Assembly: GCF_000179635.2 (NCBI RefSeq)
Contig: NC_014833.1
Coordinates: 1,320,001 to 1,352,000 of the forward strand
Direction of reading: 5' to 3'
From: Ruminococcus albus 7 = DSM 20455
GTDB lineage: Bacteria; Bacillota; Clostridia; Oscillospirales; Ruminococcaceae
Length of the DNA: 32,000 nt
The translations under genes were made by a program, and so were the position numbers. How positions within the stretch are numbered: position 1 is the first letter of the stretch; every line of letters starts with the position of its first letter. The notes beneath the pieces are model-generated. The model was not told the origin of the DNA and did not search any database. It saw nothing but the letters and a program-made list of their open reading frames with translations. Shown piece by piece: positions 1-16,324 of the stretch.

Positions 1-478
1 GCGTCCGCTGCCAGATCATTCAGCATAGCTCATGCACCAAAGCGGTCAGAGTGTCCGCAGATATATCTGCCGGAAGAGATATTTGAAGTCCGTTTTTCTC
101 AATGCGGATATTTTCGTTTGAGCAAGGAACTGATACAGGAACGATGGTCGGAGAATTTTCGATATACTTTTCACGAACTTTTCTTAGGCGGTTGTAATAC
201 GTGTTTGGCTTGATCCCTTTTTCTTTGCACCATTCCCGGATCGTCAGACCGCTTGCCTGCTGTGCTTTGATCTGCGCAGACCATTCCTGAAGCTGCATTT
301 CTTTTTTGATTGTTGTGATGGATGTTGTTTTGTCCATACCTGTTACCTCCTTGTCTAATCGTCTCCAATGAACTCCATGGATCAATTTGGATTATTCAAT
401 TTACTTCATGGTGTTCCTTGGAGTTTATTATACTTTATTAGACTTCGGTGGGGTAGGTGCTGGGGGTTATACGCTTAC
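1..478 (-). mobile_element. IS66-family insertion sequence, copy A (only the IRL-proximal 478 bp lie inside the window)
   Basis: The reverse complement of 1-478 equals 5981-6459 of copy B base for base, except for one extra A in copy B (T5 at 93-97 here, A6 at 6362-6367 there). It ends at 478 with the terminal repeat GTAAGCGTATAACCCCC (rc of 462-478). GTAAGCG termini are characteristic of IS66-family elements. Confidence 0.9.
20..337 (-). CDS. tnpA: IS66 accessory protein TnpA (Orf1), intact copy
   Basis: ATG at 337 is preceded by AAGGAGG. The product is 105 aa, MDKTTSITTIKKEMQLQEW...LVHELC. The TGA stop overlaps the ATG (26-24) of the next IS66 gene, tnpB, which runs off the window edge. 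The 121-aa version in the ORF track starts inside the IS terminus without an RBS. Confidence 0.8.
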   Translation of the reverse strand: MDKTTSITTIKKEMQLQEWSAQIKAQQASGLTIREWCKEKGIKPNTYYNRLRKVREKYIENSPTIVPVSVPCSNENIRIEKNGLQISLPADISADTLTALVHELC

Positions 479-491
479 ACACTAACAATCC

Positions 492-526
492 AAAAGCACC
501 GATGTCGTGAAGATATCGGTGCTTTT
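492..526. terminator. Bidirectional intrinsic terminator hairpin downstream of the 590-1453 gene
   Basis: AAAAGCACCGAT (492-503) pairs with ATCGGTGCTTTT (515-526). A/T runs on both sides give a U-tract on either strand. Confidence 0.7.
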
Positions 527-589
527 ACTATAATTATTTCTATTTCACTGTCGTTCACTTAACTCTAAACCTTTTGAAATTGTCCTGCA

Positions 590-1453
590 TCAAAAACCGT
601 TTCGATTTATCAGCAGGTAGTATATAAATAAATACAGATCATCCGTCACATAGAACATTTCTCTGGTGAACTCATACTGTGCGTAAAATTTACCGCTCTC
701 GCTTATGAAGAAGTTTGCCTCTCTTTTTGCAGCAATAGTCAGCAGATCCTCGCCTATTTCATTTTGGAATTCTTTCGGATCTTTCATTCTTTTATTAGGG
801 TAAAATCCTACATAGCAATCATCATCTGATTTAGGGATCCAGATCCTATATTTACCGATAGGGATCACCTCAAAGAATTTATTTGCTGCAGGGAAAAATG
901 AAAATCCAAGCTCCCTGTATTTTTCTTCAATAGGCGCAGTATCAATGATCTTATCAGGATCCCAACCGTGTCTTTCAAGACTGGTATATATCCTGTCGTT
1001 CAGTATCGGAACGATCTCTTTTTCACCATTAAGAATACTCTCAACTATCTTTTCATAGTCTGTACCGAGGTATGTTCCGTCATCAAGATAAAACTCACCG
1101 TTCTCATTGATGAGTATGAATCTAAAAAAAGCTTTCTTTAGGTAAACTACAGCAGCAGGCAAATATTTTATACCGTTGTCTTTTACAAGTTTACGAACTG
1201 CTTCTTCAAGACGAATTCCGTTAAGATGAAGATTTGTATCATCATACTCAAAAGAACCACATGTTACGCCATTGTGATCGCTTAAATACCTTATAAAATG
1301 ATACTCCTTATAAAACTGCATTGCCGCATCAAAAACAGGGATATCATTAAAATGCTTCTCTAATCCTTCACAAAAAACATTGAAATGTTTTTCATAACGT
1401 GGACTGTGTCTATACTGATCATCTATTATAATACTCATTTCTGAACCTTTCAT
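590..1453 (-). CDS. Hypothetical protein; C-terminal half resembles a SUKH-3-type immunity domain (tentative)
   Basis: A 287-aa ORF followed by the terminator at 492-526. The pattern HGWDPDK...FPAANKFF...LLTIAAKREANFFISESGKFY matches my recollection of SUKH-3 family conservation. No strong SD; the start could be M1 or M6. Confidence 0.55.
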   Translation of the reverse strand: MKGSEMSIIIDDQYRHSPRYEKHFNVFCEGLEKHFNDIPVFDAAMQFYKEYHFIRYLSDHNGVTCGSFEYDDTNLHLNGIRLEEAVRKLVKDNGIKYLPAAVVYLKKAFFRFILINENGEFYLDDGTYLGTDYEKIVESILNGEKEIVPILNDRIYTSLERHGWDPDKIIDTAPIEEKYRELGFSFFPAANKFFEVIPIGKYRIWIPKSDDDCYVGFYPNKRMKDPKEFQNEIGEDLLTIAAKREANFFISESGKFYAQYEFTREMFYVTDDLYLFIYYLLINRNGF

Positions 1454-1504
1454 ATTATGTTTGTGCTCTGCGAATGTACGTGTCTCTTTAGATCCAGCGT
1501 ATTG

Positions 1505-1804
1505 TTATATTTGCATAAACGAAGGAAGTGGTTCAGGATAGTCCTTTGCCTTTTCCATAATCATCTTTGTCAAAGCCTTTTTCATAATACTATTCGGATC
1601 ACCGTTTGGACGAATCCAGTCTCTCAAACTATCTTTACCAAGTATCAAAGGCATCCGATCATGAATACTGCTTACAGGATCGACTGCTTCTCTTGTAAGC
1701 ACAGTGAACATCGGTATCTGAATACCTCTATGCTCTTCAAAGCGGTACAATCCTGCCAGGTATGTTATTTCCGTTCCTTCTGGTTGTATCGCATACTTTG
1801 AAGC
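1505..1804 (-). pseudogene. 3' fragment of an SOS-response-associated peptidase (SRAP/YedK, DUF159) gene
   Basis: The open frame reads ...YLAGLYRFEEHRGIQIPMFTVLTREAVDPVSSIHDRMPLILGKDSLRDWI..., containing the SRAP IHDRMP(V/L)IL motif. Only about 99 codons are open (upstream in-frame TAG at 1805-1807). The N-terminal half with the catalytic Cys2 is absent. Confidence 0.65.
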
Positions 1805-1807
1805 CTA

Positions 1808-1948
1808 TCACTTTATAGTAACAATCCCGGCATGTTTGATAGCATTTTCAGTATCCCATACGCCACCGACCCTTGCAGCGATAGCTACCTTGTAAGTCTT
1901 GCCGGGGGTGAGATTTTTGGGAGATGTGTAAACTGTATCTGTGATATT
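1808..1948 (-). pseudogene. 3' fragment of a gene ending in the same FN3-like module found at 16401-16950 and 23566-23838
   Basis: The minus-strand frame reads EYHRYSLHISKNLTPGKTYKVAIAARVGGVWDTENAIKHAGIVTIK*. Compare KLKPGENYKVAVVAKIGGKWSRDVSKAIVVTPK and IKSGTYTLAVCAKVNGKWDKSDLNSRAVTVTIK* in the 1308-aa protein. An in-frame stop lies just upstream and there is no start codon. Confidence 0.6.
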
Positions 1949-2089
1949 CCTAGCTGTATTCGACTTTTATGTTTGTTGGGATGTAAGTGCATCATCTTCT
2001 TTATCAACGTTATGGTGATTGTAGATGTTTTAGCCACTGTTTTCGATAACTGCAAATACACCGTTTCAGCTGAAAAACTATATGTATTT

Positions 2090-3163
2090 CTATTCTTTAA
2101 TTTCAGTCAGAGAATTAATAATATCATCTGTAAGCTGTATCTGTTCTTCGTTTGATAATTTATAAGATGTACGAATGACCATCGTTCCAACTATCGTATA
2201 TGACCCGGAATACAAAAGAGTTCCATCAAATTGAGATAGATAATCACATCTCTTTAAAGCATCATCAAGTGTTGCATATACTTCGACCGAGCCTCCTCCG
2301 TCAACACCTTTGTGTGCAGCATCTATTCCATTGACATCAGATACGGCAATATTATCAACGGTAAAATATACACAGCTTGTATATCCTCCTTCTTCTCCCA
2401 GTAGCTTATTGGGATCATAATATGTTGTTACAGCCTTTGTCGAAGTGATTGATTCTACATCTTTCAATCTTTCATAAATAAAATCTTTTGAAGGGGCTGT
2501 TATTTGTTCCGAGACTATATAAAGCTGTGAAATGTCATTTATATTATCAGAGATCTTTGATATTTCATCTATCAGCTTTTCTTCCGTGAACGATGTTTCA
2601 TCAAGTACATATAATTCACTATCGTTTATAGTTTTATATTCAGGTATATCTTTAATAAAATCAAGAGAAGTCTTTTCTTTCAAGGAATTATAATCATTAA
2701 CAAGGTCGTTATAATTGTTTACTATCGTGTCATAAGCTGTTTCACATATCGGTAAATAGCTTTCTTCCAATTTTTTAGTCTCAGTATTGATTTTTTTCAC
2801 ATCATTGGATATTACAGAAATATCATCATTTGATTTTCTGTACTCATCAAAATTTCTGTTGATTTCGGATCTGTGTTCAATATTATGCACTTCGCTAAAC
2901 ACATTAAATCTATCTACATCAGCAATAAAATTATTGATCTTATCTGCATTTGTATTATACTTTTTTACTGCATTATCATATATATCACAATAAGACAAAT
3001 AGTCTTTTTCAAAAGTAGCAAGTTCTTTATTCAAAGCGTCATTTTTCCTTTTTGATGATAATAGTATGACTATTAAAGTAATGATAATAAACACACAAAT
3101 GATGACAAAAAATAATGTACGTTTGTTATCCAATATAATCTTTAAGCGATTTTTCAAGTTCAT
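2090..3163 (-). CDS. Membrane-anchored coiled-coil protein, unknown function (third gene of an AT-rich operon)
   Basis: ATG at 3163 is preceded by GAAGGTG at 6-nt spacing. N-terminal TM segment LFFVIICVFIIITLIVILLSS, then a long K/E/N/D-rich helical region and a globular C-terminus (...GGGSVEVYATLDDALKRCDYL...). It overlaps the upstream gene by 38 nt. Confidence 0.75.
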   Translation of the reverse strand: MNLKNRLKIILDNKRTLFFVIICVFIIITLIVILLSSKRKNDALNKELATFEKDYLSYCDIYDNAVKKYNTNADKINNFIADVDRFNVFSEVHNIEHRSEINRNFDEYRKSNDDISVISNDVKKINTETKKLEESYLPICETAYDTIVNNYNDLVNDYNSLKEKTSLDFIKDIPEYKTINDSELYVLDETSFTEEKLIDEISKISDNINDISQLYIVSEQITAPSKDFIYERLKDVESITSTKAVTTYYDPNKLLGEEGGYTSCVYFTVDNIAVSDVNGIDAAHKGVDGGGSVEVYATLDDALKRCDYLSQFDGTLLYSGSYTIVGTMVIRTSYKLSNEEQIQLTDDIINSLTEIKE

Positions 3164-3467
3164 TGATAGCACCTTCACAAATTCTCTGATTTACAATACC
3201 TTCTTTGGCATAAATTGATATCAATAGTTGTTCGTTGTATAAATGGATCGCAGCTTTTGCATCGCTTTTTTTCATAAAACCGGATCTTATAAAAGCAACA
3301 TATACTTTGTTCTCCAAATCCTCAAATATAATGTTACCTTTTACTATAAGGATATCTCTGATTTTTAGAAAAGAAAGACCTGTTACTGCAAAGGTATAAT
3401 TCATGATTTTATCTTTTTCAACGAGAGTATGTGCCGACAAAATATCATCAAGATCTTGAAGATTCAT
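3126..3467 (-). CDS. Small cytoplasmic protein (113 aa), unknown function (second gene of the operon)
   Basis: ATG at 3467 is preceded by AAGGAGA at 6-nt spacing. The product begins MNLQDLDDILSAHTLVEK... and has no TM or signal peptide. The longer track ORF begins at a TTG without an RBS. Confidence 0.75.
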   Translation of the reverse strand: MNLQDLDDILSAHTLVEKDKIMNYTFAVTGLSFLKIRDILIVKGNIIFEDLENKVYVAFIRSGFMKKSDAKAAIHLYNEQLLISIYAKEGIVNQRICEGAINELEKSLKDYIG

Positions 3468-3580
3468 AGTGTTTCTCCTTTGGTTTAACATAGCAGTCAC
3501 ATAATCAATTATGCTGTGATACAAGTAGGGTTATGGACATATGGTAAATAACCAACATATGAAGATGTAAATGAATACGA

Positions 3581-5143
3581 CTAATGGAGAAAGACAACAC
3601 CATTTAATTCTTCTAAAAGAGATGCTCTCATTTCGTCCTCTGTTGGTACCTTAACTTTAGGTCTTTTCTTTACTTCTTTTTCAAATAATGGCTCAAGTAA
3701 ATCATCTGCAAATTTAGAACGATCATTGCTTTGATACATTTTTTCAAAAACGTCTTCATCAAGTTTATTGCTTAATTCTTTGGCTATATTGGTAGCTTCG
3801 GATTCAGTAACAATATATTCTTCACATTTATCTGCAAATTTATTTTGAATGATTTCATACATTTCGTCGGCATCGTCATCGGTAATATAATCCGCAATTG
3901 CATCGGCAGCTATAGATGCTCCACCGCCTATAAGAACAGATCCGATAATAGCACCTGGTAGCGTTCCGACGCCGGGAACGACTAAACTCCCTATAATACC
4001 ACCAGCATAACCACCGGCTGCTCCAGCTACGGTGGAAACACCTGCAACAGCAAAGTTCTTGATAAATTGTTTTTTAGAAATCTTACCATTGAATAGTTTC
4101 ACTCCATCAGGCACAGTAAAAACGATTAGAGAAACTGTATCAACAAGTGCATTAGAACTGATGAGTTCGACAGCAGCCTTTTTAGCGGCTGTTTTGCCAA
4201 GACTTTCCGCGCCTTCTTCGATTAATTCCTTCTCCATGGTTTTTGTTAAAGTCTTTGCGAAATCATCACCTAAAGCATCAACCAGAGCCGTTGCAGAGGG
4301 TCTAAAAACATTTTTGACATTTGTTTTCGCTAATTGTCCTGCAATAACAGCCGTAGCAAATTGCATTCCGCCTGCTTTAAGACCGTCAATTGCAGAATCC
4401 TTTATTGCATCACTATATTCTTCTCCGCTATTTACCCTTACAGCAAAATTAAGGAGTGTATCAATACCAAATGCAGCAGAAGAAGATACAATGCCATTAG
4501 TAGCATCGTATTTAAGCGAATCTATATTTCCTGCTTTTGCAATATTTACTGCCTGTTTATAAGTCAGATTACCTTTTCTGACGATACGTTCAGCTTCCTC
4601 TGGATCGGTAATACCCGGGACAGAACCATTCTTGATTTTTTCTTTCATGAGATCAACAGCATTGTCATATTGATCTTTAGGAACCTCGATTTGCATAGGT
4701 TTTCCATCAGAATCAAAATATCTAAATATCTCTTCCTCATCAAAACATGCATTGATACTGGCGGGAGCAGATTGATAATACTTATCCTGAATAAAAATAT
4801 TCTCACCTGTTTTTTGTATTATTATACGATCAGCACCATTTTTAACATTATTATCACCAATTACAATAGCATTGGATCCTTTAATTTTATCAATAAGGTT
4901 ATTGCCTCTTTCAGCAGCAAAACCATGACCTTGAGCAGCCGTAAATTTTCTTTGAGCTCTTACATCTGCTCCTGTCATACGGTTAGCTATTACAATGCTC
5001 GTTATATCAACATTGTCGCTAATATCAACCGTATAATTATCGTTAGGAAGTGAAGATGATTCTTCTTGAGCAAAAACTGCTAACTGTGAATTTTGTAAAA
5101 GAATAGAACAAGAGAGAATAATACTAATTATACGTTTATTCAT
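3581..5143 (-). CDS. Secreted or membrane protein with a glycine-zipper hydrophobic region, unknown function (first gene of the operon)
   Basis: ATG at 5143 is preceded by GGGAGGAGGA. Sec-type signal MNKRIISIILSCSILLQNSQLAVFA/QEE. Conserved-looking block AAQGHGFAAERGNNLID...NNVKNGADRIII...IQDKYY. Gly-rich hydrophobic stretch AVAGVSTVAGAAGGYAGGIIGSLVVPGVGTLPGAIIGSVLIGGGASIAADAIA, then an acidic C-terminal tail. Confidence 0.8.
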   Translation of the reverse strand: MNKRIISIILSCSILLQNSQLAVFAQEESSSLPNDNYTVDISDNVDITSIVIANRMTGADVRAQRKFTAAQGHGFAAERGNNLIDKIKGSNAIVIGDNNVKNGADRIIIQKTGENIFIQDKYYQSAPASINACFDEEEIFRYFDSDGKPMQIEVPKDQYDNAVDLMKEKIKNGSVPGITDPEEAERIVRKGNLTYKQAVNIAKAGNIDSLKYDATNGIVSSSAAFGIDTLLNFAVRVNSGEEYSDAIKDSAIDGLKAGGMQFATAVIAGQLAKTNVKNVFRPSATALVDALGDDFAKTLTKTMEKELIEEGAESLGKTAAKKAAVELISSNALVDTVSLIVFTVPDGVKLFNGKISKKQFIKNFAVAGVSTVAGAAGGYAGGIIGSLVVPGVGTLPGAIIGSVLIGGGASIAADAIADYITDDDADEMYEIIQNKFADKCEEYIVTESEATNIAKELSNKLDEDVFEKMYQSNDRSKFADDLLEPLFEKEVKKRPKVKVPTEDEMRASLLEELNGVVFLH

Positions 5144-5212
5144 AGGTTTATCCTCCTCCCATATGTTTTTAATTACAATTCACCGTCACAATCATCAATA
5201 TCCTTGTTTATG

Positions 5213-5241
5213 ATTATAGCACAATTTGTGCAATATGTCAA
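5213..5241 (-). promoter_or_regulatory. Consensus sigma-A promoter of the 5143-2090 operon, with a palindrome in the spacer
   Basis: The minus strand reads TTGACA (5241-5236), a 17-nt spacer, then TATAAT (5218-5213) with an extended-10 TGC. The spacer contains the inverted repeat GCACAA-A-TTGTGC (5219-5231). Confidence 0.65.
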
Positions 5242-5368
5242 GTGAGGCTATACAAAATTGAGCAATCCATATTATATTTAAAGAATGATCAATGAACGAA
5301 GATCAAGCCATGAATACCGTATCCTCAACGTATTTGACGATGTTGTCATTACGATTAGACATTCAGAT

Positions 5369-5980
5369 ATTTCAATCCACTCTCCCCGTGTGGGGAGAGA
5401 CATTTTGGCGAAAGTCAGACAACAAGGCGAGTAAAATTTCAATCCACTCTCCCCGTGTGGGGAGAGACCCTTGACAGATATCAACTCACGTTCGGTCTTG
5501 TTGCATTTCAATCCACTCTCCCCGTGTGGGGAGAGACTTGTATACCCTCGCAACGTGCGAGGGATACGGCATTTCAATCCACTCTCCCCGTGTGGGGAGA
5601 GACAGCATGGGGTTACGATATGTTAATTGCATTACTGATTTCAATCCACTCTCCCCGTGTGGGGAGAGACAAAAGGTTATAGCCCACAAAGATGAGATAA
5701 TCGAATTTCAATCCACTCTCCCCGTGTGGGGAGAGACGAAGGATGATCCCGATTGCAAGTACTGCATTTGGATTTCAATCCACTCTCCCCGTGTGGGGAG
5801 AGACCAATGGGACTGAACAAATGTATTTTTCTTGGGAATTTCAATCCACTCTCCCCGTGTGGGGAGAGACAGAGTCGCAGTTTGGCAACAAAGACCATAG
5901 TGGCATTTCAATCCACTCTCCCCGTGTGGGGAGAGACAAGAGATCGGCGGCAATTCGGAAACTGTATGCGTATTTCAATC
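5369..5980 (-). CRISPR. CRISPR array fragment: 9 complete 33-bp repeats, 9 spacers (33-36 bp) and a 9-nt repeat stub cut by IS66
   Basis: The repeat ATTTCAATCCACTCTCCCCGTGTGGGGAGAGAC starts at 5369, 5436, 5505, 5571, 5638, 5705, 5772, 5838 and 5905, and all nine copies are identical. ATTTCAATC at 5972-5980 abuts the IS end. The rc, GTCTCTCCCCACACGGGGAGAGTGGATTGAAAT, has an 8-bp stem and an ATTGAAAT tail like type I-C repeats, so the transcribed strand is inferred to be minus. Confidence 0.95.
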
Positions 5981-6121
5981 GTAAGCGTATAACCCCCAGC
6001 ACCTACCCCACCGAAGTCTAATAAAGTATAATAAACTCCAAGGAACACCATGAAGTAAATTGAATAATCCAAATTGATCCATGGAGTTCATTGGAGACGA
6101 TTAGACAAGGAGGTAACAGGT

Positions 6122-6440
6122 ATGGACAAAACAACATCCATCACAACAATCAAAAAAGAAATGCAGCTTCAGGAATGGTCTGCGCAGATCAAAGCACAGC
6201 AGGCAAGCGGTCTGACGATCCGGGAATGGTGCAAAGAAAAAGGGATCAAGCCAAACACGTATTACAACCGCCTAAGAAAAGTTCGTGAAAAGTATATCGA
6301 AAATTCTCCGACCATCGTTCCTGTATCAGTTCCTTGCTCAAACGAAAATATCCGCATTGAGAAAAAACGGACTTCAAATATCTCTTCCGGCAGATATATC
6401 TGCGGACACTCTGACCGCTTTGGTGCATGAGCTATGCTGA
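6122..6440 (+). pseudogene. tnpA: IS66 tnpA (Orf1) with a +1 frameshift in an A-run
   Basis: Identical to copy A except A6 (6362-6367) in place of A5. The reading frame changes after ...NIRIEK and stops at 6428-6430, so it does not reach the TGA at 6438-6440 that overlaps the tnpB ATG. Confidence 0.75.
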
Positions 6441-6790
6441 ATGATCTGGCAGCGGACGCACAGGTCTATCTTGTTACGGGATACACCGACCTTCGACGCG
6501 GGATAGACGGACTTGCGACTATCGTTCAGGCTCAGCTTCGACTTGACCCGTTCTCGAAAGCATTGTTTTTGTTCTGCGGCAGACGTTGTGACCGCATCAA
6601 AGGTCTGCTGTGGGAGGGCGATGGTTTTCTGCTGTTGTACAAGCGCCTTGACAACGGAAGATTCCAGTGGCCGCGCAGTGAGACCGAAGCAGTAATGCTC
6701 ACATCTCAGCAAATTCGCTGGCTTCTGGAAGGCTTGAAAATAGAGCAGCCGAAGGCTATCCGTGAGGGAAAGCCGGGGGCGCTGTATTAA
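6434..6790 (+). CDS. tnpB: IS66 Orf2 (TnpB)
   Basis: 118 aa, MLNDLAADAQVYLVTGYTDLRRGIDGLATIVQ...FLFCGRRCDRIKGLLWEGDGF...RL, which is the typical IS66 Orf2 conservation pattern. Its position between tnpA and the DDE transposase also fits. Confidence 0.9.
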   Translation: MLNDLAADAQVYLVTGYTDLRRGIDGLATIVQAQLRLDPFSKALFLFCGRRCDRIKGLLWEGDGFLLLYKRLDNGRFQWPRSETEAVMLTSQQIRWLLEGLKIEQPKAIREGKPGALY

Positions 6791-6882
6791 GGCAATACTT
6801 ACCGAATATTCAGAATATGTGCTTGAAAAGCCCCTCTTTTCGTGGTATCATTAAAGTATCATCACGAACGGAGGGGTGCTTT

Positions 6883-8712
6883 ATGTCCGAACCAAATATG
6901 ACATCGGAAATTGTATCGCTCCGTAATGAAAACGCTGTTCTCAAGGAAGAACTAGCACTTGCCAATCAGCAGTTAGCGTGGTTCAGAAAGCAGATATTCG
7001 GAAGAAAAACAGAGCAGACATCTGTTGTTATGGAAAAGGAGTTCGGTGTTCAGCTTTCCATGTTCGGAAACAATGAAGAAAAATCCGCAGCTAAATCTGC
7101 CGAAACAATTACTGTTCCCGAACACAAGCGCAAGAAAAAACGCACTCACGATGAATGGATGAACAATCTGCCTGTAAAAGAAGAACATCACAAAATTGAC
7201 AACCCGGTATGCGAAATATGCGGCGCCGAAATGGAAGAACTGACTCCCGAAAAGGCTTACGATGAACTTATATTTACGCCGCCAAAATATCATATCCGCA
7301 GGCATATAGTACATAAGTACAAGTGTCCCGAGTGCGGAGAAAAGCCCGAAGAAAGGGACGAACCTTGTCATATCATCCGTGCGCCATATCCTCACGCTAT
7401 GATCCCGGGAAGCTATTGCTCTCCCGAACTTCTGGCTCATATCATCTACGAAAAATATGCAAAGTCAGTACCTCTGCACCGTCAGGAAAAGGACTTTAAT
7501 TCCAAAAACATACCTCTGCTCAAAGCGACTATGTCTAATTGGGTAGGCACTGCTGCCGAAAAATGGTGTTTGCCGATTGTGGAGAAAATGCATGAGATGC
7601 TTATCGCAGGGCAGATGATCCATGCCGATGAAACGACCGTTCAGGTGCTTCACGAGGAAGGCCGAAAGCCTACCACGACATCAAGAATGTGGGTCTACTG
7701 CAACGGCAAAATGAATGACAGGAGCATCATCATTTTCGATTATCAGCCGACACGAAAGGGTGAGCACGCCTCGAATTTCCTGAAAGGATTTATCGGCTAT
7801 CTTATCTGTGACGGATACGATGCCTACAATGCAGTCGAGGGTGCTAAGCGATGCGGCTGTATGACTCATGCAAGGCGTGGTTTTATTCAGGCTCTTCCGA
7901 ACGACCAAAAGCTGCACAGCACTTCTGTTGCGGCAAAGGCAGTAGAATATTTCAACAAGATATATCACGAAGAAAATCTGCTTGCCGACAGCTCCACAGA
8001 ATACAGATATAAACAGCGCCTTGTGAAGGTAAAGCCTTTGCTTGACGAGTTTTTTGCGTGGCTTGAAAATGTTCAGGTCAGTGGTAAGGGCAAGCTGACA
8101 GATGCAGTAAGATATGCGTTGAATGAACGGAAATATCTTTACACGTTTCTTGAAAACGGAGACGTGCCTATCGACAACAACAGAGCCGAAAACGCAATAA
8201 GACCGTTTGCGTTAGGCCGAAAAAATTGGCTGTTTTCAAATACAGCAAACGGAGCCAGATCAAGTGCAACGCTGTATTCGATCATTTCAACTGCACAGGC
8301 GAACGGTGTTGATGCTGAGAAATACCTGACCGAGCTGTTTTCACAGCCTGCGGGGACGATATTATTACCATGGAGGAAGAAAATGAAACTTAGTAATGAA
8401 GATGCAAAGCTGTTTTATGAACTGTTTTTTCCACTGCTTGACTATGTGAACAGAGAATATCATATACTTCCTGAGGAAGATTATTTCGGGCAAGGAATGA
8501 TCGACCCACAGGACGCTGCGGAGGTTGCCCACTTTTATGGGAACGGACATGGATCATTGATGATTATCTTGAGCGATCGGATCTGCCCGAAGAACACATG
8601 GAGATACTTAAAAGCTGGAAAGGGTGCATCACCGGCAGATTTATCATTGAGCGACATTGGAAAAAGGGATCGGTATTTATATCGATCGATGACAATTCTG
8701 TTTTTCTTGTAA
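6883..8712 (+). CDS. tnpC: IS66-family DDE transposase TnpC, open frame running on into a downstream ORF
   Basis: ATG at 6883 follows GGAGGGG. N-terminal leucine zipper plus WFRKQIFGRKTE, a zinc-finger pair (CEICGAEM...YKCPECGE), and the motifs HADETTVQVL, CDGYDAYN, CMTHARRGF and DNNRAENAIRPFALGRKNWLFS. The usual C-terminal LLPW motif is at about 8365-8376, but no stop follows, so the frame continues to 8712. Confidence 0.85.
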   Translation: MSEPNMTSEIVSLRNENAVLKEELALANQQLAWFRKQIFGRKTEQTSVVMEKEFGVQLSMFGNNEEKSAAKSAETITVPEHKRKKKRTHDEWMNNLPVKEEHHKIDNPVCEICGAEMEELTPEKAYDELIFTPPKYHIRRHIVHKYKCPECGEKPEERDEPCHIIRAPYPHAMIPGSYCSPELLAHIIYEKYAKSVPLHRQEKDFNSKNIPLLKATMSNWVGTAAEKWCLPIVEKMHEMLIAGQMIHADETTVQVLHEEGRKPTTTSRMWVYCNGKMNDRSIIIFDYQPTRKGEHASNFLKGFIGYLICDGYDAYNAVEGAKRCGCMTHARRGFIQALPNDQKLHSTSVAAKAVEYFNKIYHEENLLADSSTEYRYKQRLVKVKPLLDEFFAWLENVQVSGKGKLTDAVRYALNERKYLYTFLENGDVPIDNNRAENAIRPFALGRKNWLFSNTANGARSSATLYSIISTAQANGVDAEKYLTELFSQPAGTILLPWRKKMKLSNEDAKLFYELFFPLLDYVNREYHILPEEDYFGQGMIDPQDAAEVAHFYGNGHGSLMIILSDRICPKNTWRYLKAGKGASPADLSLSDIGKRDRYLYRSMTILFFL

Positions 8713-8921
8713 ACGGCATTGTCAGCAGTTGGGAGGAAATGCTGAGAAATGCACCGATGCCAACTTTGCTTGATGCAGCGCTTCTGCCATTTAAAAATGC
8801 GATCATTTCCGATGGCCTGGTATCTGTTATGCCGATCATATTCGGTCCGAACAGCAAAGCTGATTTCAAAGAAATATACATGGACGCAAAGAGAAATGGA
8901 GAAATCAAAGCCAGAATATGA
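8383..8921 (+). pseudogene. Fourth ORF inside the IS (unknown function); own RBS, apparently frameshifted
   Basis: GGAGGA (8372-8377) lies 5 nt before the ATG at 8383. The frame reads MKLSNEDAKLFYELFFPLLDYVNREYHILPEEDYFGQGMIDPQDAAEVAHF. A second frame then continues more plausibly: LWERTWIIDDYLERSDLPEEHMEILKSWKGCITGRFIIERHWKKGSVFISIDD...EIKARI*, with stop at 8919-8921. The junction is near the T4 run at 8533-8536. Hairpin GCCGGG/CCCGGC at 8929-8949 follows. Confidence 0.45.
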
Positions 8922-9069
8922 TGTTACGGCCGGGTGTTATCTGCCCGGCTGTTTGCTTTTATGATGCGGGGGGTTATACGCTTACGTTAGTGTTTTGATC
9001 CTTCTATGGCAATAACCATACAATTCGGGTGGGCGGTATTTTCTTGCGGAAAAATGAAGTACATACCTA

Positions 9070-9098
9070 TTGATTTTCACACTCGACTGTGCTATAAT
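9070..9098 (+). promoter_or_regulatory. Sigma-A-type promoter for the 9131 gene
   Basis: TTGATT (9070-9075), a 17-nt spacer, then TATAAT (9093-9098) with an extended-10 TGC. Confidence 0.55.
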
Positions 9099-9130
9099 AA
9101 ATCAAAGACCGATGAAAGGAGCCTTGACGA

Positions 9131-10702
9131 ATGGGTATGCTGCTGAATCCGAGTGCGGAAAGTTACCGAATGGCGGTTAATTCAAAGATATACATTGATA
9201 AATCAATGCTGATCTCTGTAATGAATGAGTGCATAAATACATCTCAGCGGTTTGTATGTGTGAGCCGTCCCCGCAGGTTCGGAAAATCTATCACTGCTGA
9301 TATGCTTTGTGCGTATTACGGTCAGGAGGATACCGACAGTCTGTTCAGGACTCTGAAGATATCGGGTTCTCCCGACTACAAAAAATATCTCAATAAGTTT
9401 CAGGTCATACATCTGAATATGATCAATTTTATGGATAAACATGACTCTCTTGAAGGCTCACTGGATTATCTTCAGAAGAGACTTCTCCATGAATTGAAGT
9501 CACAGTTCAGCGGCGTTGACTGCTTTGACTGGAACGACTTACCCTCTGTTCTGGAGGATATCTACAATGCTGTTCATGTGAAGTTTGTATTTGTTATCGA
9601 TGAGTGGGACTGTATTTTCCGCAGGAACAAGAATGATACCGAAAATCAGACTCTTTATCTTGATTTTTTGCGCAGTCTTCTGAAAGACAAGGTGTATGTT
9701 GCACTTGCATATATGACAGGTATCCTGCCAATAAAGAAGTATGGCGAGCATTCAGCACTCAATATGTTCAAGGAGATATCTGTAGCCGATGCAGGTGTTT
9801 ATGCCGAATATACAGGCTTTACCGAAGAGGAAGTCAGGGAGCTTTGCGGCAAGTATGAAATGGACTTCGATGAGGTCAAGCGCTGGTATGATGGATACAA
9901 TGTCAATGATGTATCGATATACAATCCGAAGTCCGTTGTCGAGGCAATGCTGAGCAAGGAGTTAGGCAACTATTGGACGCAGACAGAGACTTACGAGGCG
10001 TTGAAAGAATATATCCAAGCGAATTTTGACGGTTTGCGTGACAAGGTGGTACAGCTTATTGCAGATGAGCCAGTGAAGGTAAATATTCTTAAATTCCAGA
10101 ACGATATGACAAATTTCAGTTCTGCTGATGATGTGCTGACACTTTTGATACATCTGGGATATCTGACCTACAATAAGGCAGACAGAAGTTGCTATATCCC
10201 AAATGAGGAAGTACGGCAGGAATTCATCAACTGCATTGAGGATGGCGGTTGGGAGAATGTCATGTCAGCAATTAGAAGTTCGGAAAGACTGTTGGAAGAT
10301 ACGCTGAAAGGCAATGAAAAGGCAGTCAGTGATGCACTTCGTGAGCTGCATTATCAGAACACTTCGCTGCTGACATACAACAATGAAAATTCTCTGAGCT
10401 GTCTTCTGAGCCTTGCATTTTATTCTGCTAAGAAGTATTATACTATTTTCAGAGAGCTGGAAACAGGCGAGGGTTTTGCAGATCTGGTGTTTATCCCATT
10501 GAAGCATTCTGACAAACCTGCGATGCTGGTTGAGTTGAAATATGATAGATCCGCCGACACAGCGATCCGTCAGATAAAAGAAAAACGCTACCATGGCGCG
10601 TTGACAGAATATCTTGATAAGCTGATCATCGTGGGCATAAACTATGATAAAAATACCAAGGAGCATACTTGCAGGATAGAACGCTTTAATGCCGAAAAAT
10701 AG
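9131..10702 (+). CDS. AAA-ATPase-like domain protein with C-terminal PD-(D/E)XK nuclease domain (DUF1703-type)
   Basis: AAGGAG lies 9 nt upstream of the ATG. P-loop-like SRPRRFGKS, DEWD Walker-B-like motif (FVFVIDEWD), and a C-terminal GFADLVFIP...AMLVELKYD block matching the D...E-x-K nuclease signature. Confidence 0.85.
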   Translation: MGMLLNPSAESYRMAVNSKIYIDKSMLISVMNECINTSQRFVCVSRPRRFGKSITADMLCAYYGQEDTDSLFRTLKISGSPDYKKYLNKFQVIHLNMINFMDKHDSLEGSLDYLQKRLLHELKSQFSGVDCFDWNDLPSVLEDIYNAVHVKFVFVIDEWDCIFRRNKNDTENQTLYLDFLRSLLKDKVYVALAYMTGILPIKKYGEHSALNMFKEISVADAGVYAEYTGFTEEEVRELCGKYEMDFDEVKRWYDGYNVNDVSIYNPKSVVEAMLSKELGNYWTQTETYEALKEYIQANFDGLRDKVVQLIADEPVKVNILKFQNDMTNFSSADDVLTLLIHLGYLTYNKADRSCYIPNEEVRQEFINCIEDGGWENVMSAIRSSERLLEDTLKGNEKAVSDALRELHYQNTSLLTYNNENSLSCLLSLAFYSAKKYYTIFRELETGEGFADLVFIPLKHSDKPAMLVELKYDRSADTAIRQIKEKRYHGALTEYLDKLIIVGINYDKNTKEHTCRIERFNAEK

Positions 10703-10724
10703 GGATTATAAGCCTATAACATCT

Positions 10725-10755
10725 CGCATCAAACGCACATCAAATTCGCATCAAA
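10725..10755. repeat. Three direct CRCATCAAA repeats at 11-bp spacing
   Basis: CGCATCAAA at 10725-10733, CACATCAAA at 10736-10744 and CGCATCAAA at 10747-10755, just downstream of the 9131-10702 stop. Confidence 0.5.
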
Positions 10756-10997
10756 TGGTTTCATCCTATGTGAAATAATAAAAGCCTATGATTATGTTCG
10801 ATATCACTTATTTTCCCGAAAAACAGGGACATAGAAAAAAATAAAGAGACATGGAAATCGGGCGGATTATTCCCGACGATGAAGTCCATCGACTGAAAAA
10901 CGTTGTAATAGCGTAAGGCTTGAGGTCGCTGAGGCGGTTTTTACGACCATCTTACGACCGGTTTAAAGAGAACGCATTTGATATTGTAAATAAAGAT

Positions 10998-11033
10998 ACC
11001 GAAGCTGACTGTAATAGTTGGCTTCGGTTTTTG
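10998..11033 (+). terminator. Intrinsic terminator hairpin
   Basis: ACCGAAGC (10998-11005) pairs with GCTTCGGT (11021-11028) and is followed by TTTTT. It lies about 300 nt after the nearest plus-strand stop codon. Confidence 0.5.
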
Positions 11034-11370
11034 CTTTAGTATCAGATCGTAAGCACAAATAGCTGAGATTTTTGAAGAATCATAATTATTTCTTCGGCAA
11101 TAATATAATTTGACCGTTTTAGGCTAGTGGCTTGATAATAACATAATACCGTACTGCTGACGTTTCTCCATATAGAGAATCTCGAAGGCAAAATAACGCT
11201 CATATAGCTGACCCCAAAATTTGCCCCGATCTGGCCCCAAATTTTATTTTTTATAACGAGTTATGTAGAAATTGCGTGAAAAAGGCAGGTGCCGAAAACG
11301 CTGTAATACAGAGGCTTTGAAGGGTTATGGAGATTTGCGTTTATTTGCCCGGAGATTTCCCGACAAAGAA

Positions 11371-11436
11371 GAGCCCGGCACTACCTTTTCAGGTCTGTGC
11401 CAGGCTCGTTTTCTTGTTGGGGCTTGCAACAGCCCC
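11371..11436 (-). terminator. Two hairpins downstream of the pectate lyase gene
   Basis: GGGGCT/AGCCCC at 11419-11436, and GAGCC(C)GGCAC...GTGCC(A)GGCTC at 11371-11407. The second is followed on the minus strand by TTCTTTGTC. Confidence 0.55.
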
Positions 11437-11463
11437 GATGTCATTTGGTGTAGTTATAATAAC

Positions 11464-13041
11464 TTAAAAACCAGAGCAATTGCCGGACAGCTTAGCGCCG
11501 CCGATGTTGTTCTTGCCGTTCTTGGAAGTGCAGCTGATTATCTTAGCCACACCGAAAGTTACCTTGTAACCCAGTGCGGAAGGAGTGCCGCTTGCAGGCC
11601 AGTTGAAGTTGTACTTCTTGTTGCTGTCGCCTGTGCAGTTCTCCATAGTTACAACACCGTTCTGGTTGTTTCTGTCAAAGCCCGAAGCGTAGTTGCCCTT
11701 AGCAGTGCAGCCTTTGAGAACGTGGTTGAGGGGATCGAGGTGAGCCTTTTCACCGCTGGTCTTGTTGTCAACGCCGCCCATCTTGAAGCCGTTGCCGTCA
11801 CCGTAGATGCCGTCGCAGTAGCCGTTGTAGTTAGCCTGGCAGTTAACGAGGGTAACTGCGCCGTGAGCAGCATAGCAGTCCCAGCCGTCGTCGCTGTTGT
11901 AGTCAGCGATGCAGTTCTCGTAATAGTTGCCTGTGCCCGAATGCAGCTTGTTTGCGAATCCGTCAGCATTCTCGCCCTTAGCATCTGCATTGTGGTGAGA
12001 ATGGCAGCTGTAGAACTTGTTGTTTGAACCGCCGTTGCATACCTGGAAGCCTGCATCCTTGTTATAGCAAGCCTCAACGTTCTTGAAGGTGTTGTTGGAG
12101 CCTGTGATGTACAGACCGTTATCGGAAGCGTTCTTTATGCAAACGTTCTGTACGGTACTGCCGTTGCCCTCGAAAGTAAGACCTCTGCCGTTGCCGCCCG
12201 AAGTAGACGAGAAGTCGATGACAGCGGAGTTCTTGCCTGAGATGTTAACGCCTGCGGGTACCTTTACAGCGCCCGACTTTACTGTGCCGTTGATGACAAC
12301 GGTATCGCCCTTTTTAGCCTTGCTGAGTGCAGACGAAAGGGAGGTGCCGCCGTTCTTTACTTCAAGGGAAGAACCCGAAGAAGATGAACTGCCTGAAGAT
12401 GAAGAACTGCTGCCTGAAGATGATGAGCTGCTGCTTGAAGAAGATGAACTGCTCGACGAAGAGCTGCCCGAAGATTTGCTTGCACCTGCAGAAGTAGACT
12501 CAAACTTGAACTGCTGGCAGGCGAGTCCGTTATAAGTCCACTGATTGATGTTGCCGTTATCGGAGGTTGACCAGCCGTAAACATCTACCGCTTTGGATTC
12601 GCCGCTGTTTTCGGTCTTAAGGCAGTAAACGCCGGAAGAACTCTTGACTACCTTGAATTTCTGAGCGTTAGCGCCGTTGGCAGACCACAGGCGGATATTG
12701 GCTCCATCGGTGTTAGCGCCATTCTCAACATCGAGCATACGTCCGCCTTTCAGACCGCTTCTGATAGTGATAACGTTATTGCCGAGATTGGTGACATACC
12801 ACTTCTGGTTATTGCCGCCGTTGCCCTTATACTGGATAACGTTGGAACCATCGGCATCTTTTTTGCCCGATACATCGAGGTATTTCTGGCTGTTGACGTT
12901 TTTGATATAATACCAGCCATCGGAGATGTAATTGGATGCTGCGAACGCATTCAGCGGTACAGCGGTGGTCAGTGCGGATACAGCAATACCAACAGCTGCA
13001 ACCGCAGAAGTTAATTTTTTTGCAATACTAAATCTTGACAT
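11464..13041 (-). CDS. Secreted ricin-type lectin (CBM13)-polySer-pectate lyase-like beta-helix protein
   Basis: ATG at 13041 follows AGGAGA at 7-nt spacing. Signal peptide ...AVPLNAFA/AS. Three beta-trefoil repeats carry Q-x-W/F motifs (QKW, QKF, QQF). After a 36-residue Ser/Gly linker comes a beta-helix region with NADGFANK, NSDDGWDCY and GNGFKMGG motifs that I recall from PL9-type pectate lyases. Confidence 0.8.
   Translation of the reverse strand: MSRFSIAKKLTSAVAAVGIAVSALTTAVPLNAFAASNYISDGWYYIKNVNSQKYLDVSGKKDADGSNVIQYKGNGGNNQKWYVTNLGNNVITIRSGLKGGRMLDVENGANTDGANIRLWSANGANAQKFKVVKSSSGVYCLKTENSGESKAVDVYGWSTSDNGNINQWTYNGLACQQFKFESTSAGASKSSGSSSSSSSSSSSSSSSSSGSSSSSSGSSSSSGSSLEVKNGGTSLSSALSKAKKGDTVVINGTVKSGAVKVPAGVNISGKNSAVIDFSSTSGGNGRGLTFEGNGSTVQNVCIKNASDNGLYITGSNNTFKNVEACYNKDAGFQVCNGGSNNKFYSCHSHHNADAKGENADGFANKLHSGTGNYYENCIADYNSDDGWDCYAAHGAVTLVNCQANYNGYCDGIYGDGNGFKMGGVDNKTSGEKAHLDPLNHVLKGCTAKGNYASGFDRNNQNGVVTMENCTGDSNKKYNFNWPASGTPSALGYKVTFGVAKIISCTSKNGKNNIGGAKLSGNCSGF
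12367..12474 (-). repeat. Low-complexity Ser/Gly linker coding repeat (36 codons)
   Basis: An imperfect trinucleotide repeat (TCn/AGC codons) encodes SSGS(17)GS(6)GS(5)GSS between the lectin and lyase domains. Confidence 0.9.
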
Positions 13042-13126
13042 TTTAAATTCTCCTATAAAGTCTTGGGGACATTTCATTTCGCGAAAAGAAACTTTCATGT
13101 TGCGCAGATTTGTAATTACAAGAAAA

Positions 13127-13155
13127 ATTATATATCTTAACCAATTATTTTTCAA
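13127..13155 (-). promoter_or_regulatory. Sigma-A-type promoter for the pectate lyase gene
   Basis: The minus strand reads TTGAAA (13155-13150), a 17-nt spacer, then TATAAT (13132-13127). Confidence 0.55.
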
Positions 13156-13368
13156 TGGACAAAACGTGAATGAATATTTCAAAATCGGATAAATACTCGT
13201 TATTGTGTTATATTCTGTTCAAATTTGATTGAAAGATTTTATAAGTTAAGAATAATTTAAAATGAGTTTATATTATATGTTCAATTAATGATAACGAAAG
13301 TATCAGAAAATTTGCGTACAAATGCAGCGGCTGTTACACCTTTTTTTGAAAGAATATTTGATAACCGC

Positions 13369-13398
13369 TTGACGGCGGGTAGTAATTTGTATTATATT
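13369..13398 (+). promoter_or_regulatory. Candidate promoter with no ORF downstream
   Basis: TTGACG (13369-13374), an 18-nt spacer, then TATATT (13393-13398). Confidence 0.4.
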
Positions 13399-13402
13399 AT
13401 CC

Positions 13403-13488
13403 ATAGCGGATCACATGACCTTCTGTTGCCTTTTGTGTAGCAACTTAACTGTAACACAGGTTCATGCTGGTTCGCTATCTTTTTTCTT
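13403..13488 (+). ncRNA. Candidate small RNA or orphan terminator: long imperfect hairpin plus U-tract
   Basis: ATAGCGGATCACATGACC (13403-13420) pairs with GGTTCATGCTGGTTCGCTAT (13459-13478), with G-U pairs and two bulges. The inner arms are GTTGC/GCAAC. TTTTTT at 13480-13485 follows. No ORF or RBS is present. Confidence 0.3.
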
Positions 13489-13549
13489 AATTTGTCTCAC
13501 ATCTATTGTGATCCTACAATTCTTGTCGTGCTTATTCTTGAATTACATA

Positions 13550-13578
13550 TTGACAAGAAGCGTTTAATATGTTAAAAT
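13550..13578 (+). promoter_or_regulatory. Consensus promoter of the small-peptide/ABC operon
   Basis: TTGACA (13550-13555), a 17-nt spacer, then TAAAAT (13573-13578) with an extended-10 TGT. Confidence 0.6.
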
Positions 13579-13693
13579 TAATTTTGCATTTATATAATAA
13601 TGATTGAAAAAAACTTTAGGCTGACTGCTGTTGTTACTACAAGTGTATGTAAAAAGGCTGATCATAAAAGATTCAAAAAAAGGAGATATTATC

Positions 13694-13852
13694 ATGAACA
13701 GACATATCATTATCAGGGCTGTATTAGCGGCAATATGGGTTATAGTGGGTATTGTTGTACTTATAAAAGGACAGATGACATCAGGACTGATATCATTGGC
13801 GATGGGTGCTGCTTTCGGATTCAGTGCTTTCTCTATGTCAAGAAAAAAGTAA
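13694..13852 (+). CDS. 52-aa two-TM membrane peptide
   Basis: AAGGAGA lies 7 nt before the ATG at 13694. The product is MNRHIIIRAVLAAIWVIVGIVVLIKGQMTSGLISLAMGAAFGFSAFSMSRKK, two hydrophobic helices and a basic tail. It ends 9 nt before the ABC ATPase gene. Confidence 0.65.
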   Translation: MNRHIIIRAVLAAIWVIVGIVVLIKGQMTSGLISLAMGAAFGFSAFSMSRKK

Positions 13853-13861
13853 GGAGATACC

Positions 13862-14581
13862 ATGGCTGATCTTCTTCAACTGGCTGAACTTAAAGCCTGG
13901 TATGACCCTGAAAAACAAGTCCTTAAAGGACTTGATCTTATCCTGGAAGAACACAGTGTCATCGGACTTATAGGTCTTAATGGTGCAGGAAAAACTACCC
14001 TTATGAACGTTCTATGCGGACTTCACACGGGTTTTTCAAGTAATGAGCTAAAATTTTCAGGTAAAAATTTCAGTTTCAAGGACAAGGAATTCAAAGAGCA
14101 GAGATATATAGTATTCTCGGAAGACGAGTCCTTTGGATATTTCTCATTTGATGAGTATATCGCTTATGTATTCGGCTGTTATAACAAAAAGCCCGATAAA
14201 ACATATATTGATGAACTGGTGGAAAAGTTCGGTTTTGGTGATTACCGAAGTACTTTTATAAAAGACCTCTCCCTAGGCAACCGCAGAAAGGTGTATCTCA
14301 TCACGGGTTTTGCCCTGAAGCTGCCATTGCTGCTGCTTGATGAACCTGTCAATGGTCTGGATTTCAACAGTACTGAAGCCCTTTATGATCTTATTGCAGG
14401 GTACAAGAAGTTCGGTACAGTGCTGTTTTCTTCCCACATACTGGAAAGTGTTACCCTGACCTCAGATAAGGTATTGGTGCTGGAAAACGGAATAATTGCC
14501 AGAACTTACTCAGGCAGTGATATTACTACTGAAAATATCAGGGATTCGCTGGAGAAAGCGAGCGTGGTGAAAGATGTTTAA
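13862..14581 (+). CDS. ABC transporter ATP-binding protein
   Basis: AAGGAGA RBS. Walker A GLNGAGKTT, signature LSLGNRRKV, Walker B LLLLDEP and H-loop SSH. Confidence 0.9.
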   Translation: MADLLQLAELKAWYDPEKQVLKGLDLILEEHSVIGLIGLNGAGKTTLMNVLCGLHTGFSSNELKFSGKNFSFKDKEFKEQRYIVFSEDESFGYFSFDEYIAYVFGCYNKKPDKTYIDELVEKFGFGDYRSTFIKDLSLGNRRKVYLITGFALKLPLLLLDEPVNGLDFNSTEALYDLIAGYKKFGTVLFSSHILESVTLTSDKVLVLENGIIARTYSGSDITTENIRDSLEKASVVKDV

Positions 14582-15713: not shown

Positions 15714-15754
15714 ATAATGACCGAACGGTATTATTAATACAACATATACATTTA

Positions 15755-15787
15755 GGGGCTGTTGCAACAGCCCCATTTTTTCTTTTA
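15755..15787 (+). terminator. Intrinsic terminator of the ABC operon
   Basis: Perfect palindrome GGGGCTGTTGCAACAGCCCC (15755-15774), followed by ATTTTTTCTTTT. Confidence 0.85.
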
Positions 15788-15960
15788 TCACTGCCACCGT
15801 TAAGATAGCGATAAAATTCTTTGTATTACCTCTTCTTCAAATTCTTGGTGGATTCAGTGCAGTTAAAAAAATATCCTGTTTCTCACGGATCAGAACACGT
15901 TTCTTTTCATTATCTGAGTTTCTCGCCTGCTTTAAATGTTTTCGGGTAAGCATAGTTTTC

Positions 15961-15989
15961 TTGACTGAGATTTGATCTCATGATATACT
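15961..15989 (+). promoter_or_regulatory. Near-consensus promoter with no recognisable gene downstream
   Basis: TTGACT (15961-15966), a 17-nt spacer, then TATACT (15984-15989) with an extended-10 TGA. Confidence 0.45.
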
Positions 15990-16324
15990 TTATTTCGGAA
16001 AATTTCTATTCTATTGTGACCGATCCGTTCTGTTTACTGTCTATATAAGGGTTGAAGAAGGCGGATCTTTCGAGTTCGACAATATCGAAAGCGTCACTAT
16101 AGACAGCGTTGAATACAGATATGCAGGATGATCTTATCGGCGTACCTTCGGGTGCGCCGAATTTATGTATATATCGATTTTTACGTCTGTGCGTCTTTGG
16201 CGTTTATTTACAAAGCTTGCTTTCTTGTTATTTGCAGACTGGCTGTCATCATTATCATGTGTTTTAGAAAAAAACACCCCATTACCATTCAAATGATGAT
16301 GAGGATATTGTTAAGAAGATTAGT

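Follow-up and report, generated by a model that had tools for sequence, protein, structure and literature searches.

Why does part of a type I-C clustered regularly interspaced short palindromic repeat (CRISPR) array lie, with neither leader nor cas genes, between two opposite copies of an insertion sequence (IS), and why do the 8-bp sequences beside those copies pair from one copy to the other? The question is raised by the left part of a 32,000-nt stretch of the Ruminococcus albus 7 (DSM 20455) chromosome (NC_014833.1, positions 1,320,001 to 1,352,000; this whole stretch is the window), in which two copies, A and B, of one 3,005-bp IS66-family element enclose 5,502 bp. It had been proposed from the window's letters that the two ends bearing the same 8-mer came from one insertion and that the enclosed segment was flipped between the copies (the original prediction). 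We find that the segment has very probably been inverted in this way, as indicated by an uninterrupted insertion site in one relative, by the orientation of the same genes in a second, and by the gene order in the record. How the flip came about is a separate matter, on which two accounts have to be weighed.

Two inverted copies of one element

Copies A and B are inverted copies of the same element. Two 100% complementary inverted-repeat arms (93-478/5981-6366 and 1-97/6363-6459) were returned by the repeat finder, and pairwise alignment showed the 478-bp match of the copies to be broken by one 1-nt indel, a run of five A in copy A (GAGAAAAAC) against six in copy B (GAGAAAAAAC), so that both methods agree with the claim that the copies are identical over this length apart from one homopolymer A.

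The element belongs to the IS66 family, as had been supposed. The product of tnpC (window 6883-8712) is a DDE transposase with a zinc finger and a leucine zipper, matching the Pfam families DDE_Tnp_IS66 (PF03050, 1.1e-88), zf-IS66 (PF13005, 1.1e-07) and LZ_Tnp_IS66 (PF13007, 2.5e-06), and it is accompanied by TnpB and by TnpA. The 105-amino-acid (aa) TnpA open reading frame (ORF) gave only a sub-threshold match to HTH_Tnp_1 (20 bits, cut-off 24.1) and bears the NCBI name IS66 accessory TnpA. The 23-nt terminal inverted repeats of copy B, left (IRL) GTAAGCGTATAACCCCCAGCACC at 5981-6003 and right (IRR) GATGCGGGGGGTTATACGCTTAC at 8963-8985, start with GTAAGCG and are imperfect, matching at 20 of their 23 positions. 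Four ORFs of 105, 118, 503 and 179 aa were present in all ten related copies, about 96% identical, on metagenome contigs (L034-L043). The last of them, ORF4, overlaps the end of tnpC, has no Pfam match, is conserved in every related copy and belongs to a cluster of about 100 members.

When copy B is set against these intact relatives, three single-base homopolymer frameshifts stand out, one in tnpA, one where tnpC meets ORF4 and one within ORF4 itself (Table 1). The intact 503-aa TnpC under accession ADU21661 matches the copy B sequence exactly once the missing G is restored, whereas the frameshifted TnpA of copy B is a unique protein. Copy B is thus either a decayed, non-autonomous copy, or its frameshifts are homopolymer sequencing errors in the finished genome.

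Apparently exchanged target duplications

The 8-mers beside the IS ends were read directly at the places claimed for them: ACACTAAC outside the IRL of copy A, GTTAGTGT outside the IRR of copy B, and TTTCAATC at the other end of copy B, within a truncated CRISPR repeat. Since ACACTAAC is the reverse complement of GTTAGTGT, the 8-mer on the inner side of copy A and that on the outer side of copy B are the two halves expected of one duplication, and the chance probability of one such pre-specified 8-mer match is 1/65,536. The same junctions were found at 100% identity in two draft contigs of the same strain, GTTAGTGT/IRL in L012 and IRR/GTTAGTGT in L001; stretches of 8,923 and 4,908 bases in contigs of this draft (GCA_000621285.1) match the window at 100% identity. 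Three of the four junctions can be read in the window and all three fit an exchange of flanks, while the fourth, at the IRR of copy A, lies to the left of it. There copy A would be joined as GATTGAAA/GTAAGCG..., or written out ...GTCTCTCCCCACACGGGGAGAGTGGATTGAAA/GTAAGCGTATAACCCCCCGCATC..., so that its IRR would abut ...GGGGAGAGTGGATTGAAA; we infer this exact sequence.

Both insertion targets adjoin strong hairpins, GTTAGTGT lying 5 nt past the stem of a terminator and TTTCAATC beside the palindromic core of the CRISPR repeat. The element may therefore have a structural preference for hairpins, a suggestion drawn from two sites only.

An empty site and an opposite orientation in relatives

If the two ends bearing GTTAGTGT came from one insertion, the reverse complement of 479-500 should once have continued directly into 8994 and onward. 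Metagenome contigs were scanned for the 20-mer that spans this predicted pre-insertion joint, and the site was found uninterrupted in contig L031. There the flank on the terminator side is 90% identical over 92 nt and is followed by a single GTTAGTGT and then by TTTGATCC. Beyond GTTAGTGT the relative reads TTTGATCCATCCACGGCAGTAACCAT and the window TTTGATCCTTCTATGGCAATAACCAT, and 14 of the 18 unforced bases match 9002-9019 (chance about 4e-6). In this relative, then, the DNA that borders copy A on its inner side runs straight on into the DNA that borders copy B on its outer side. The window has two copies of GTTAGTGT and the empty site has one, which points to precisely these 8 bp as the duplication produced by the insertion. 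The terminator itself, which the original prediction had placed just before the joint, is a strong hairpin, and the IS target lies 5 nt beyond the U-tract of this terminator of the SUKH-3 gene. From this comparison the right flank of copy B appears to be the ancestral downstream neighbour of the SUKH-3 terminator.

A second relative bears on orientation. In L033, a Ruminococcus metagenome-assembled genome of about 98% DNA identity, one strand aligns with window positions 1799 to 572 reversed and then, 1.66 kb further on, with 9031 to 17603 forward. The order SRAP to SUKH-3 therefore reads toward the AAA-ATPase gene in L033 and away from it in the window, so that the segment stands opposite to its orientation in this relative. 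The CRISPR fragment likewise runs counter to the cas operon.

The position of that operon was taken from the gene order of the record, read from consecutive GenBank protein accessions (locus tags Rumal_1140 to Rumal_1154 in this stretch). Next to copy A on the left comes a type I-C cas operon. Its direction of transcription is toward the copy, since Cas3 bears the lowest accession, and by accession numbering there are no protein genes between cas2 and the tnpC of copy A. The cas2-proximal part of the array must therefore run antiparallel to the fragment at 5369-5980, and the order cas2-tnpC-tnpB-tnpA is the arrangement that the predicted far junction of copy A requires. With the empty site, the orientation in L033 and this gene order in agreement, we regard it as very likely that 479-5980 was inverted between the two IS copies, and that the GTTAGTGT-bearing ends derive from a single insertion.

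The place after the SUKH-3 terminator (window 572/9031) is variable. In L033 it holds a 1.66-kb cassette (8239-9900) with ORFs of 351 and 74 aa, and L031 diverges 26 nt past the target into a convergent gene for a 618-aa protein. At the other side, homology to L033 ends at about 1799-1801, within SRAP, a gene that the window has only as a truncated pseudogene. By comparison with L033, the block made up of cas operon, array and the three genes at 2090-5143 has the look of an island that was inserted or replaced.

Table 1. Coordinates and protein accessions of the features in and beside the inverted locus (window positions; rows without a position come from the accession order)
Feature	Position	Strand	Accession	Remarks
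Cas3, Cas5c, Cas8c, Cas7, Cas4, Cas1, Cas2			ADU21654-21660	
TnpC of copy A, intact, 503 aa			ADU21661	
TnpB of copy A			ADU21662	
IS copy A, IRL-proximal 478 bp	1..478	-		remainder left of window; intact tnpA
tnpA of copy A, intact, 105 aa	20-337		ADU21663	exact protein match
ACACTAAC, reverse complement of 8-bp target duplication GTTAGTGT	479..486	.		abuts copy A IRL; same junction in draft L012
Segment very probably inverted, 5,502 bp: four genes, SRAP pseudogene, distal CRISPR fragment	479..5980	.		swapped 8-mers, L033 orientation, accession gene order
Terminator hairpin downstream of SUKH-3 gene	492..526 (approx.)	-		-20.7 kcal/mol, z = -5.3; conserved in L031
SUKH-3 immunity-type protein, 282 aa (Rumal_1140)	590..1438	-	ADU21664	PF14433, 4e-11
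SRAP peptidase gene fragment (pseudogene)	1505..1750	-		PF02586, profile positions 140-197 of 214 only
Hypothetical protein, 357 aa	2090..3163	-	ADU21665	accession is the 314-aa form of the ORF
Hypothetical protein, 113 aa	3126..3467	-	ADU21666	
Secreted protein, 520 aa	3581..5143	-	ADU21667	YeeR_C match on record; adjoins CRISPR array trailer end
Distal (trailer-side) type I-C array fragment	5369..5980	- (crRNA sense)		nine full 33-nt repeats, nine spacers, 9-nt stub
TTTCAATC	5973..5980	.		abuts copy B IRL, inside CRISPR repeat; partner predicted at unseen end of copy A
IS copy B, complete 3,005-bp IS66-family element	5981..8985	+		Pfam domains
tnpA of copy B	6122-6430	+	ADU21668	frameshifted by extra A in run 6362-6367, which truncates TnpA
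tnpB of copy B	6434-6790	+		TnpB_IS66 PF05717, 1.4e-40
tnpC of copy B	from 6883	+		G missing near 8374-8375 fuses tnpC to ORF4
ORF4 of copy B	from 8383 (8383-8921)	+		T missing in run 8533-8536 breaks ORF4
GTTAGTGT, 8-bp target duplication	8986..8993	.		abuts copy B IRR
Right flank: intergenic stretch and AAA-ATPase/PDDEXK_9 gene (9131-10702)	8994..10702	+	ADU21670	
ABC ATPase			ADU21673	

A CRISPR array probably divided

The fragment that ends at copy B has nine 33-nt repeats (ATTTCAATCCACTCTCCCCGTGTGGGGAGAGAC, 5369-5937), all of them perfect, and spacers 33-36 nt long, and its tenth repeat is cut by the IS to leave a 9-nt stub, ATTTCAATC, at 5972-5980. The cas operon and leader to which this array belongs are absent from the 32-kb window. 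The orientation of the repeat and the cas type were instead taken from a Logan contig of the same strain (L011), which carries cas3-cas5-cas8c-cas7-cas4-cas1-cas2, a 160-nt leader (L011 8590-8748) and the same repeat, given there as GTCTCTCC...ATTGAAAT. The cas5 gene is of the cas5c kind, the NCBI protein names are those of type I-C, and the repeats, ending in ...ATTGAAAT, are identical to those of the window. In L011 cas2, one repeat and the gene for the 520-aa protein are linked directly; we rejected this link as evidence of adjacency, since it reflects a de Bruijn collapse of the array to one repeat. The genes that follow a related cas operon (P0002) were compared as well, and they differ.

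Taken together with the gene order, these data suggest that the nine trailer-side spacers, the oldest of the array, would now be inverted, lying beyond copy A and facing copy B. Sense transcription from the leader, and with it leader-driven production of CRISPR RNAs (crRNAs), is not to be expected for them, because they and the leader lie on different strands with copy A in between, and the nine oldest spacers are thus probably not expressed from the leader.

How the segment may have been flipped

The account that we favour starts from an ancestral order on one strand of cas3-cas5-cas8c-cas7-cas4-cas1-cas2, leader, CRISPR array, the genes for the 520-, 113- and 357-aa proteins, the SRAP remnant, the SUKH-3 gene with its terminator and the AAA-ATPase gene. 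The 3,005-bp four-ORF element would have inserted into it twice and in opposite orientations, once 5 nt downstream of the SUKH-3 terminator, duplicating GTTAGTGT, and once inside a CRISPR repeat, duplicating TTTCAATC. RecA-type homologous recombination between the inverted copies would then have flipped the intervening 5,502 bp, leaving one 8-mer of each insertion on each copy and the leader-proximal part of the array beside cas2. The order of these events, and recombination rather than the chemistry of transposition as the agent of the flip, are what we infer, and to the whole account, with homologous recombination between two independent insertions as its mechanism, we give about even weight.

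Several points weigh against it. Two independent insertions 5.5 kb apart in a 3.7-Mb chromosome are a priori somewhat improbable, which favours the one-step alternative set out below. By TnpA, TnpB, TnpC and ORF4 accessions the R. albus 7 genome holds at least three and probably about ten IS copies, many with one ORF unannotated, and because there are more than five of them multi-step histories are possible. No slot for an ORF4 is present among the accessions between ADU21660 and ADU21661 for copy A; for this reason its IRR-side end is either frameshifted or, less likely, truncated. The predicted far junction (GAGTGGATTGAAAGTAAGCGTATAACCCC) gave 0 exact matches in genome_contigs and metagenome_contigs, a result that is uninformative, as the source genome is absent there. 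In the contig index the window's proteins occur on no contig above 20 kb, and look-ups of these proteins led only to draft or Logan contigs that end where an IS begins or that reduce the array to a single repeat. Finally, the original prediction had relied on 8-bp duplications as a trait of the family. This length takes its support from the empty site in L031 and from published data on IS66-family elements captured in experiments, which duplicate 8 bp (PMC3281130, table 2; PMC12898284). No intact copy was seen with one and the same 8-mer at both of its ends, and a flanking direct repeat of any length was absent from all five distinct complete related copies on metagenome contigs (L035, L036, L038/L042, L041 and L043). 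Two of these contigs from different assemblies, L038 and L042, share identical mismatched flanks. The missing duplications could stem from chimeric assembly across a multicopy repeat or from frequent IS-mediated rearrangement.

The original prediction had called recombination the simplest explanation. The inversion itself is upheld, whereas the choice of mechanism is less secure, as one-step intramolecular replicative transposition predicts an identical structure and, the products being identical, sequence alone cannot separate the two. In such an event a single IS, lying with a normal duplication at one of the two targets, GTTAGTGT or the CRISPR repeat, would have attacked the other, 5.5 kb away on the same chromosome, in the 'trans' (inversion) geometry, and the same event would have made the second, inverted copy and the flip, with need of neither a second independent insertion nor homologous recombination. 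A start of d-T-segment-X-[IS]-X-a would become d-T-[IS inverted]-rc(X)-rc(segment)-rc(T)-[IS]-X-a, where rc is the reverse complement, and with X = GTTAGTGT and rc(T) = TTTCAATC this product equals the window exactly, the predicted far junction included. The spacing of 5.5 kb is natural for a local intramolecular event. Opposite copies with matching 8-mers in inverted orientation are the signature by which one-step inversions of IS26 and Tn4401 have been diagnosed, and it was argued that such an event is likelier than insertion followed by recombination (PMC4471558). The related copies, commonly found without direct target duplications, fit a one-step origin and resemble the situation of IS26, and ISDge4, of the IS66 family, was shown to keep its donor copies on transposition (PMC12898284).

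On the other side, no report of cointegrates or Shapiro intermediates for IS66-family elements was found in the literature consulted, and copies A and B differ by at least two frameshifts (in the A-run and the G-run), all of which would have to be later than a one-step event. Most 'copy' IS families use a copy-out-paste-in route, which is incompatible with one-step inversions and so weighs against this possibility. The choice between the routes turns on the ability of IS66-family elements to use a Shapiro intermediate in transposition, and the transposition mechanism of the family has been described as insufficiently characterised (PMC12898284). We hold the one-step event to be a substantial but minority possibility. 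The frameshift differences between the copies and the lack of cointegrate evidence in the family favour recombination; should the one-step event be the right one, its footprint here would be, and we put this forward tentatively, a first indication of a Shapiro-type (cointegrate) pathway in the IS66 family, like those of IS26 and Tn3.

An artefact of assembly would leave both insertions ordinary, each with its own duplication, and the unique 5.5 kb merely placed the wrong way round at finishing. Each of the four flank-to-IS junctions reads the same whichever way the segment lies, so that short reads cannot decide the matter; the strain's independent draft is broken wherever an IS ends, and the finished sequence has homopolymer frameshifts typical of its sequencing era. 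The record is nonetheless a finished chromosome of 3,685,408 bp, and nothing in the data points to an error. Finishing in that period used paired ends and fosmids of more than 3 kb, which were able to resolve such orientations, and we consider an artefact improbable. That the IS-segment-IS unit moved as a composite transposon, or that the 8-mer match is a coincidence between flanks from unrelated rearrangements, is highly improbable and was set aside: the genome has many IS copies and inverted IS pairs can act as composite transposons, but the outer flanks (the CRISPR side and GTTAGTGT) form no duplication, the odds of the 8-mer match are those given above, the inner flank of copy A is contiguous with the outer flank of copy B in L031, and L033 has the same neighbourhood.

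A programmed invertible switch was considered as well and rejected, there being no recombinase in or beside 479-5980 and the repeats being whole 3-kb IS copies. The segment comes with no invertase, no promoter logic and no alternative coding register, and its one strong promoter-like site (5241-5213, minus strand) serves the gene for the 520-aa protein, likewise within the segment, in either orientation. Recombination between the 3-kb inverted repeats could, in principle, be continuing, in which case cultures would contain both forms, and the nine distal spacers would switch between sense and antisense relative to the leader.

Other copies of the element

A third copy in the same strain was recovered when the partial ORF4 product (95 aa) was used as query for further IRR-side junction contigs. 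It lies on JHYT01000018.1 (L026), where the IRR is flanked at 353-360 by GTTTGTAA, beside a gene for a 747-aa secreted protein; the CRISPR junction was not among the IRR-side draft contigs retrieved with this query. A scan of genome_contigs for the IS ends returned only draft contigs of R. albus AR67, in which the copies are partial or interrupted and unusable for target duplications, and the element was not found in PLSDB plasmids.

In R. albus SY3 the copy is truncated, IS homology beginning at IS position 634 (L044 3232), next to three tandem tyrosine-recombinase genes in the style of a recombinase-in-trio element. Position 634 is a recurrent break, seen also in AR67 (L016 107 and L017 305) and at L015 7147-7257, and two AR67 contigs, one covering IS positions 1-639 and the other 634-3005, overlap by 6 nt, as would be expected had a further element inserted at this point. 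A further AR67 contig (L014 1986-2077) bears a 92-bp element made up of only two IRR-type ends facing each other, which could be a miniature inverted-repeat transposable element or the remnant of an IS deletion.

Neighbouring genes

Homologues of the SUKH-3 protein that are 79-91% identical occur in Eubacterium ruminantium and other rumen taxa, some of them fused to an N-terminal acetyltransferase, which suggests horizontal movement of this immunity-type gene. The contexts of these homologues are unrelated, and synteny through them was set aside. Further right, on the minus strand at 16401-20327, lies the gene of a 1,308-aa fibronectin-type-III protein (ADU21675), which contains six tandem 540-bp repeats (17049-20048) that are 91-93% identical and at which the draft assembly breaks. 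No Rfam family scored above threshold across the whole window.

Significance and known parallels

For annotators, the locus offers an explanation of an array that is called as two opposite arrays, one of them an 'orphan' without leader or cas genes, by an IS-bounded inversion. It illustrates as well that swapped target duplications can be used to rebuild the history of a rearrangement, but not to tell recombination from one-step replicative transposition, a distinction that matters for the IS66 family, whose mechanism is unsettled. R. albus 7 is a model rumen cellulolytic strain, and its locus may be heterogeneous in culture. The current understanding of IS biology or of CRISPR is unchanged by these results. 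Among the papers listed by a full-text literature search, none mentioned R. albus 7 along with either CRISPR or insertion sequences.

The element itself is alike to IS66, IS679, ISPpa5 and ISPpa7 in its tnpA-like helix-turn-helix ORF, its TnpB_IS66, its DDE TnpC with zinc finger and leucine zipper, its GTAAGCG termini and, probably, its 8-bp duplication, and differs from them in its conserved fourth ORF, canonical members having three. As a rearrangement, the locus is an instance of a long-known class, the textbook IS-bounded inversion, and not a new mechanism. Like the classic IS-mediated inversions with exchanged duplications it has near-identical opposite copies, mismatched flanks that pair across the copies as reverse complements, and a reconstructible empty site, of which one relative (L031) provides an example. 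Nothing essential sets it apart from them, its particulars being the breakpoint in a CRISPR repeat, the four-ORF IS66-family element and the rumen Firmicute in which it occurs. The 'in trans' replicative transposition described for IS26 and Tn4401 (He et al. 2015, PMC4471558) yields the identical end product, with inverted copies, inverted segment and 8-mers; IS26, of the IS6 family, is however known to be replicative and to form cointegrates, which is not known for the IS66 family. The closest parallel in setting is IS6110 at the CRISPR (direct repeat, DR) locus of Mycobacterium tuberculosis, where an IS likewise sits in a CRISPR repeat with a duplication and recombination between IS copies remodels the array and the cas neighbourhood (PMC7708916). 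The outcomes there were deletions and duplications, with no inversions in a survey of 198 isolates (PMC7708916), whereas the outcome in R. albus is an inversion that keeps all of the DNA and yet orphans nine spacers.

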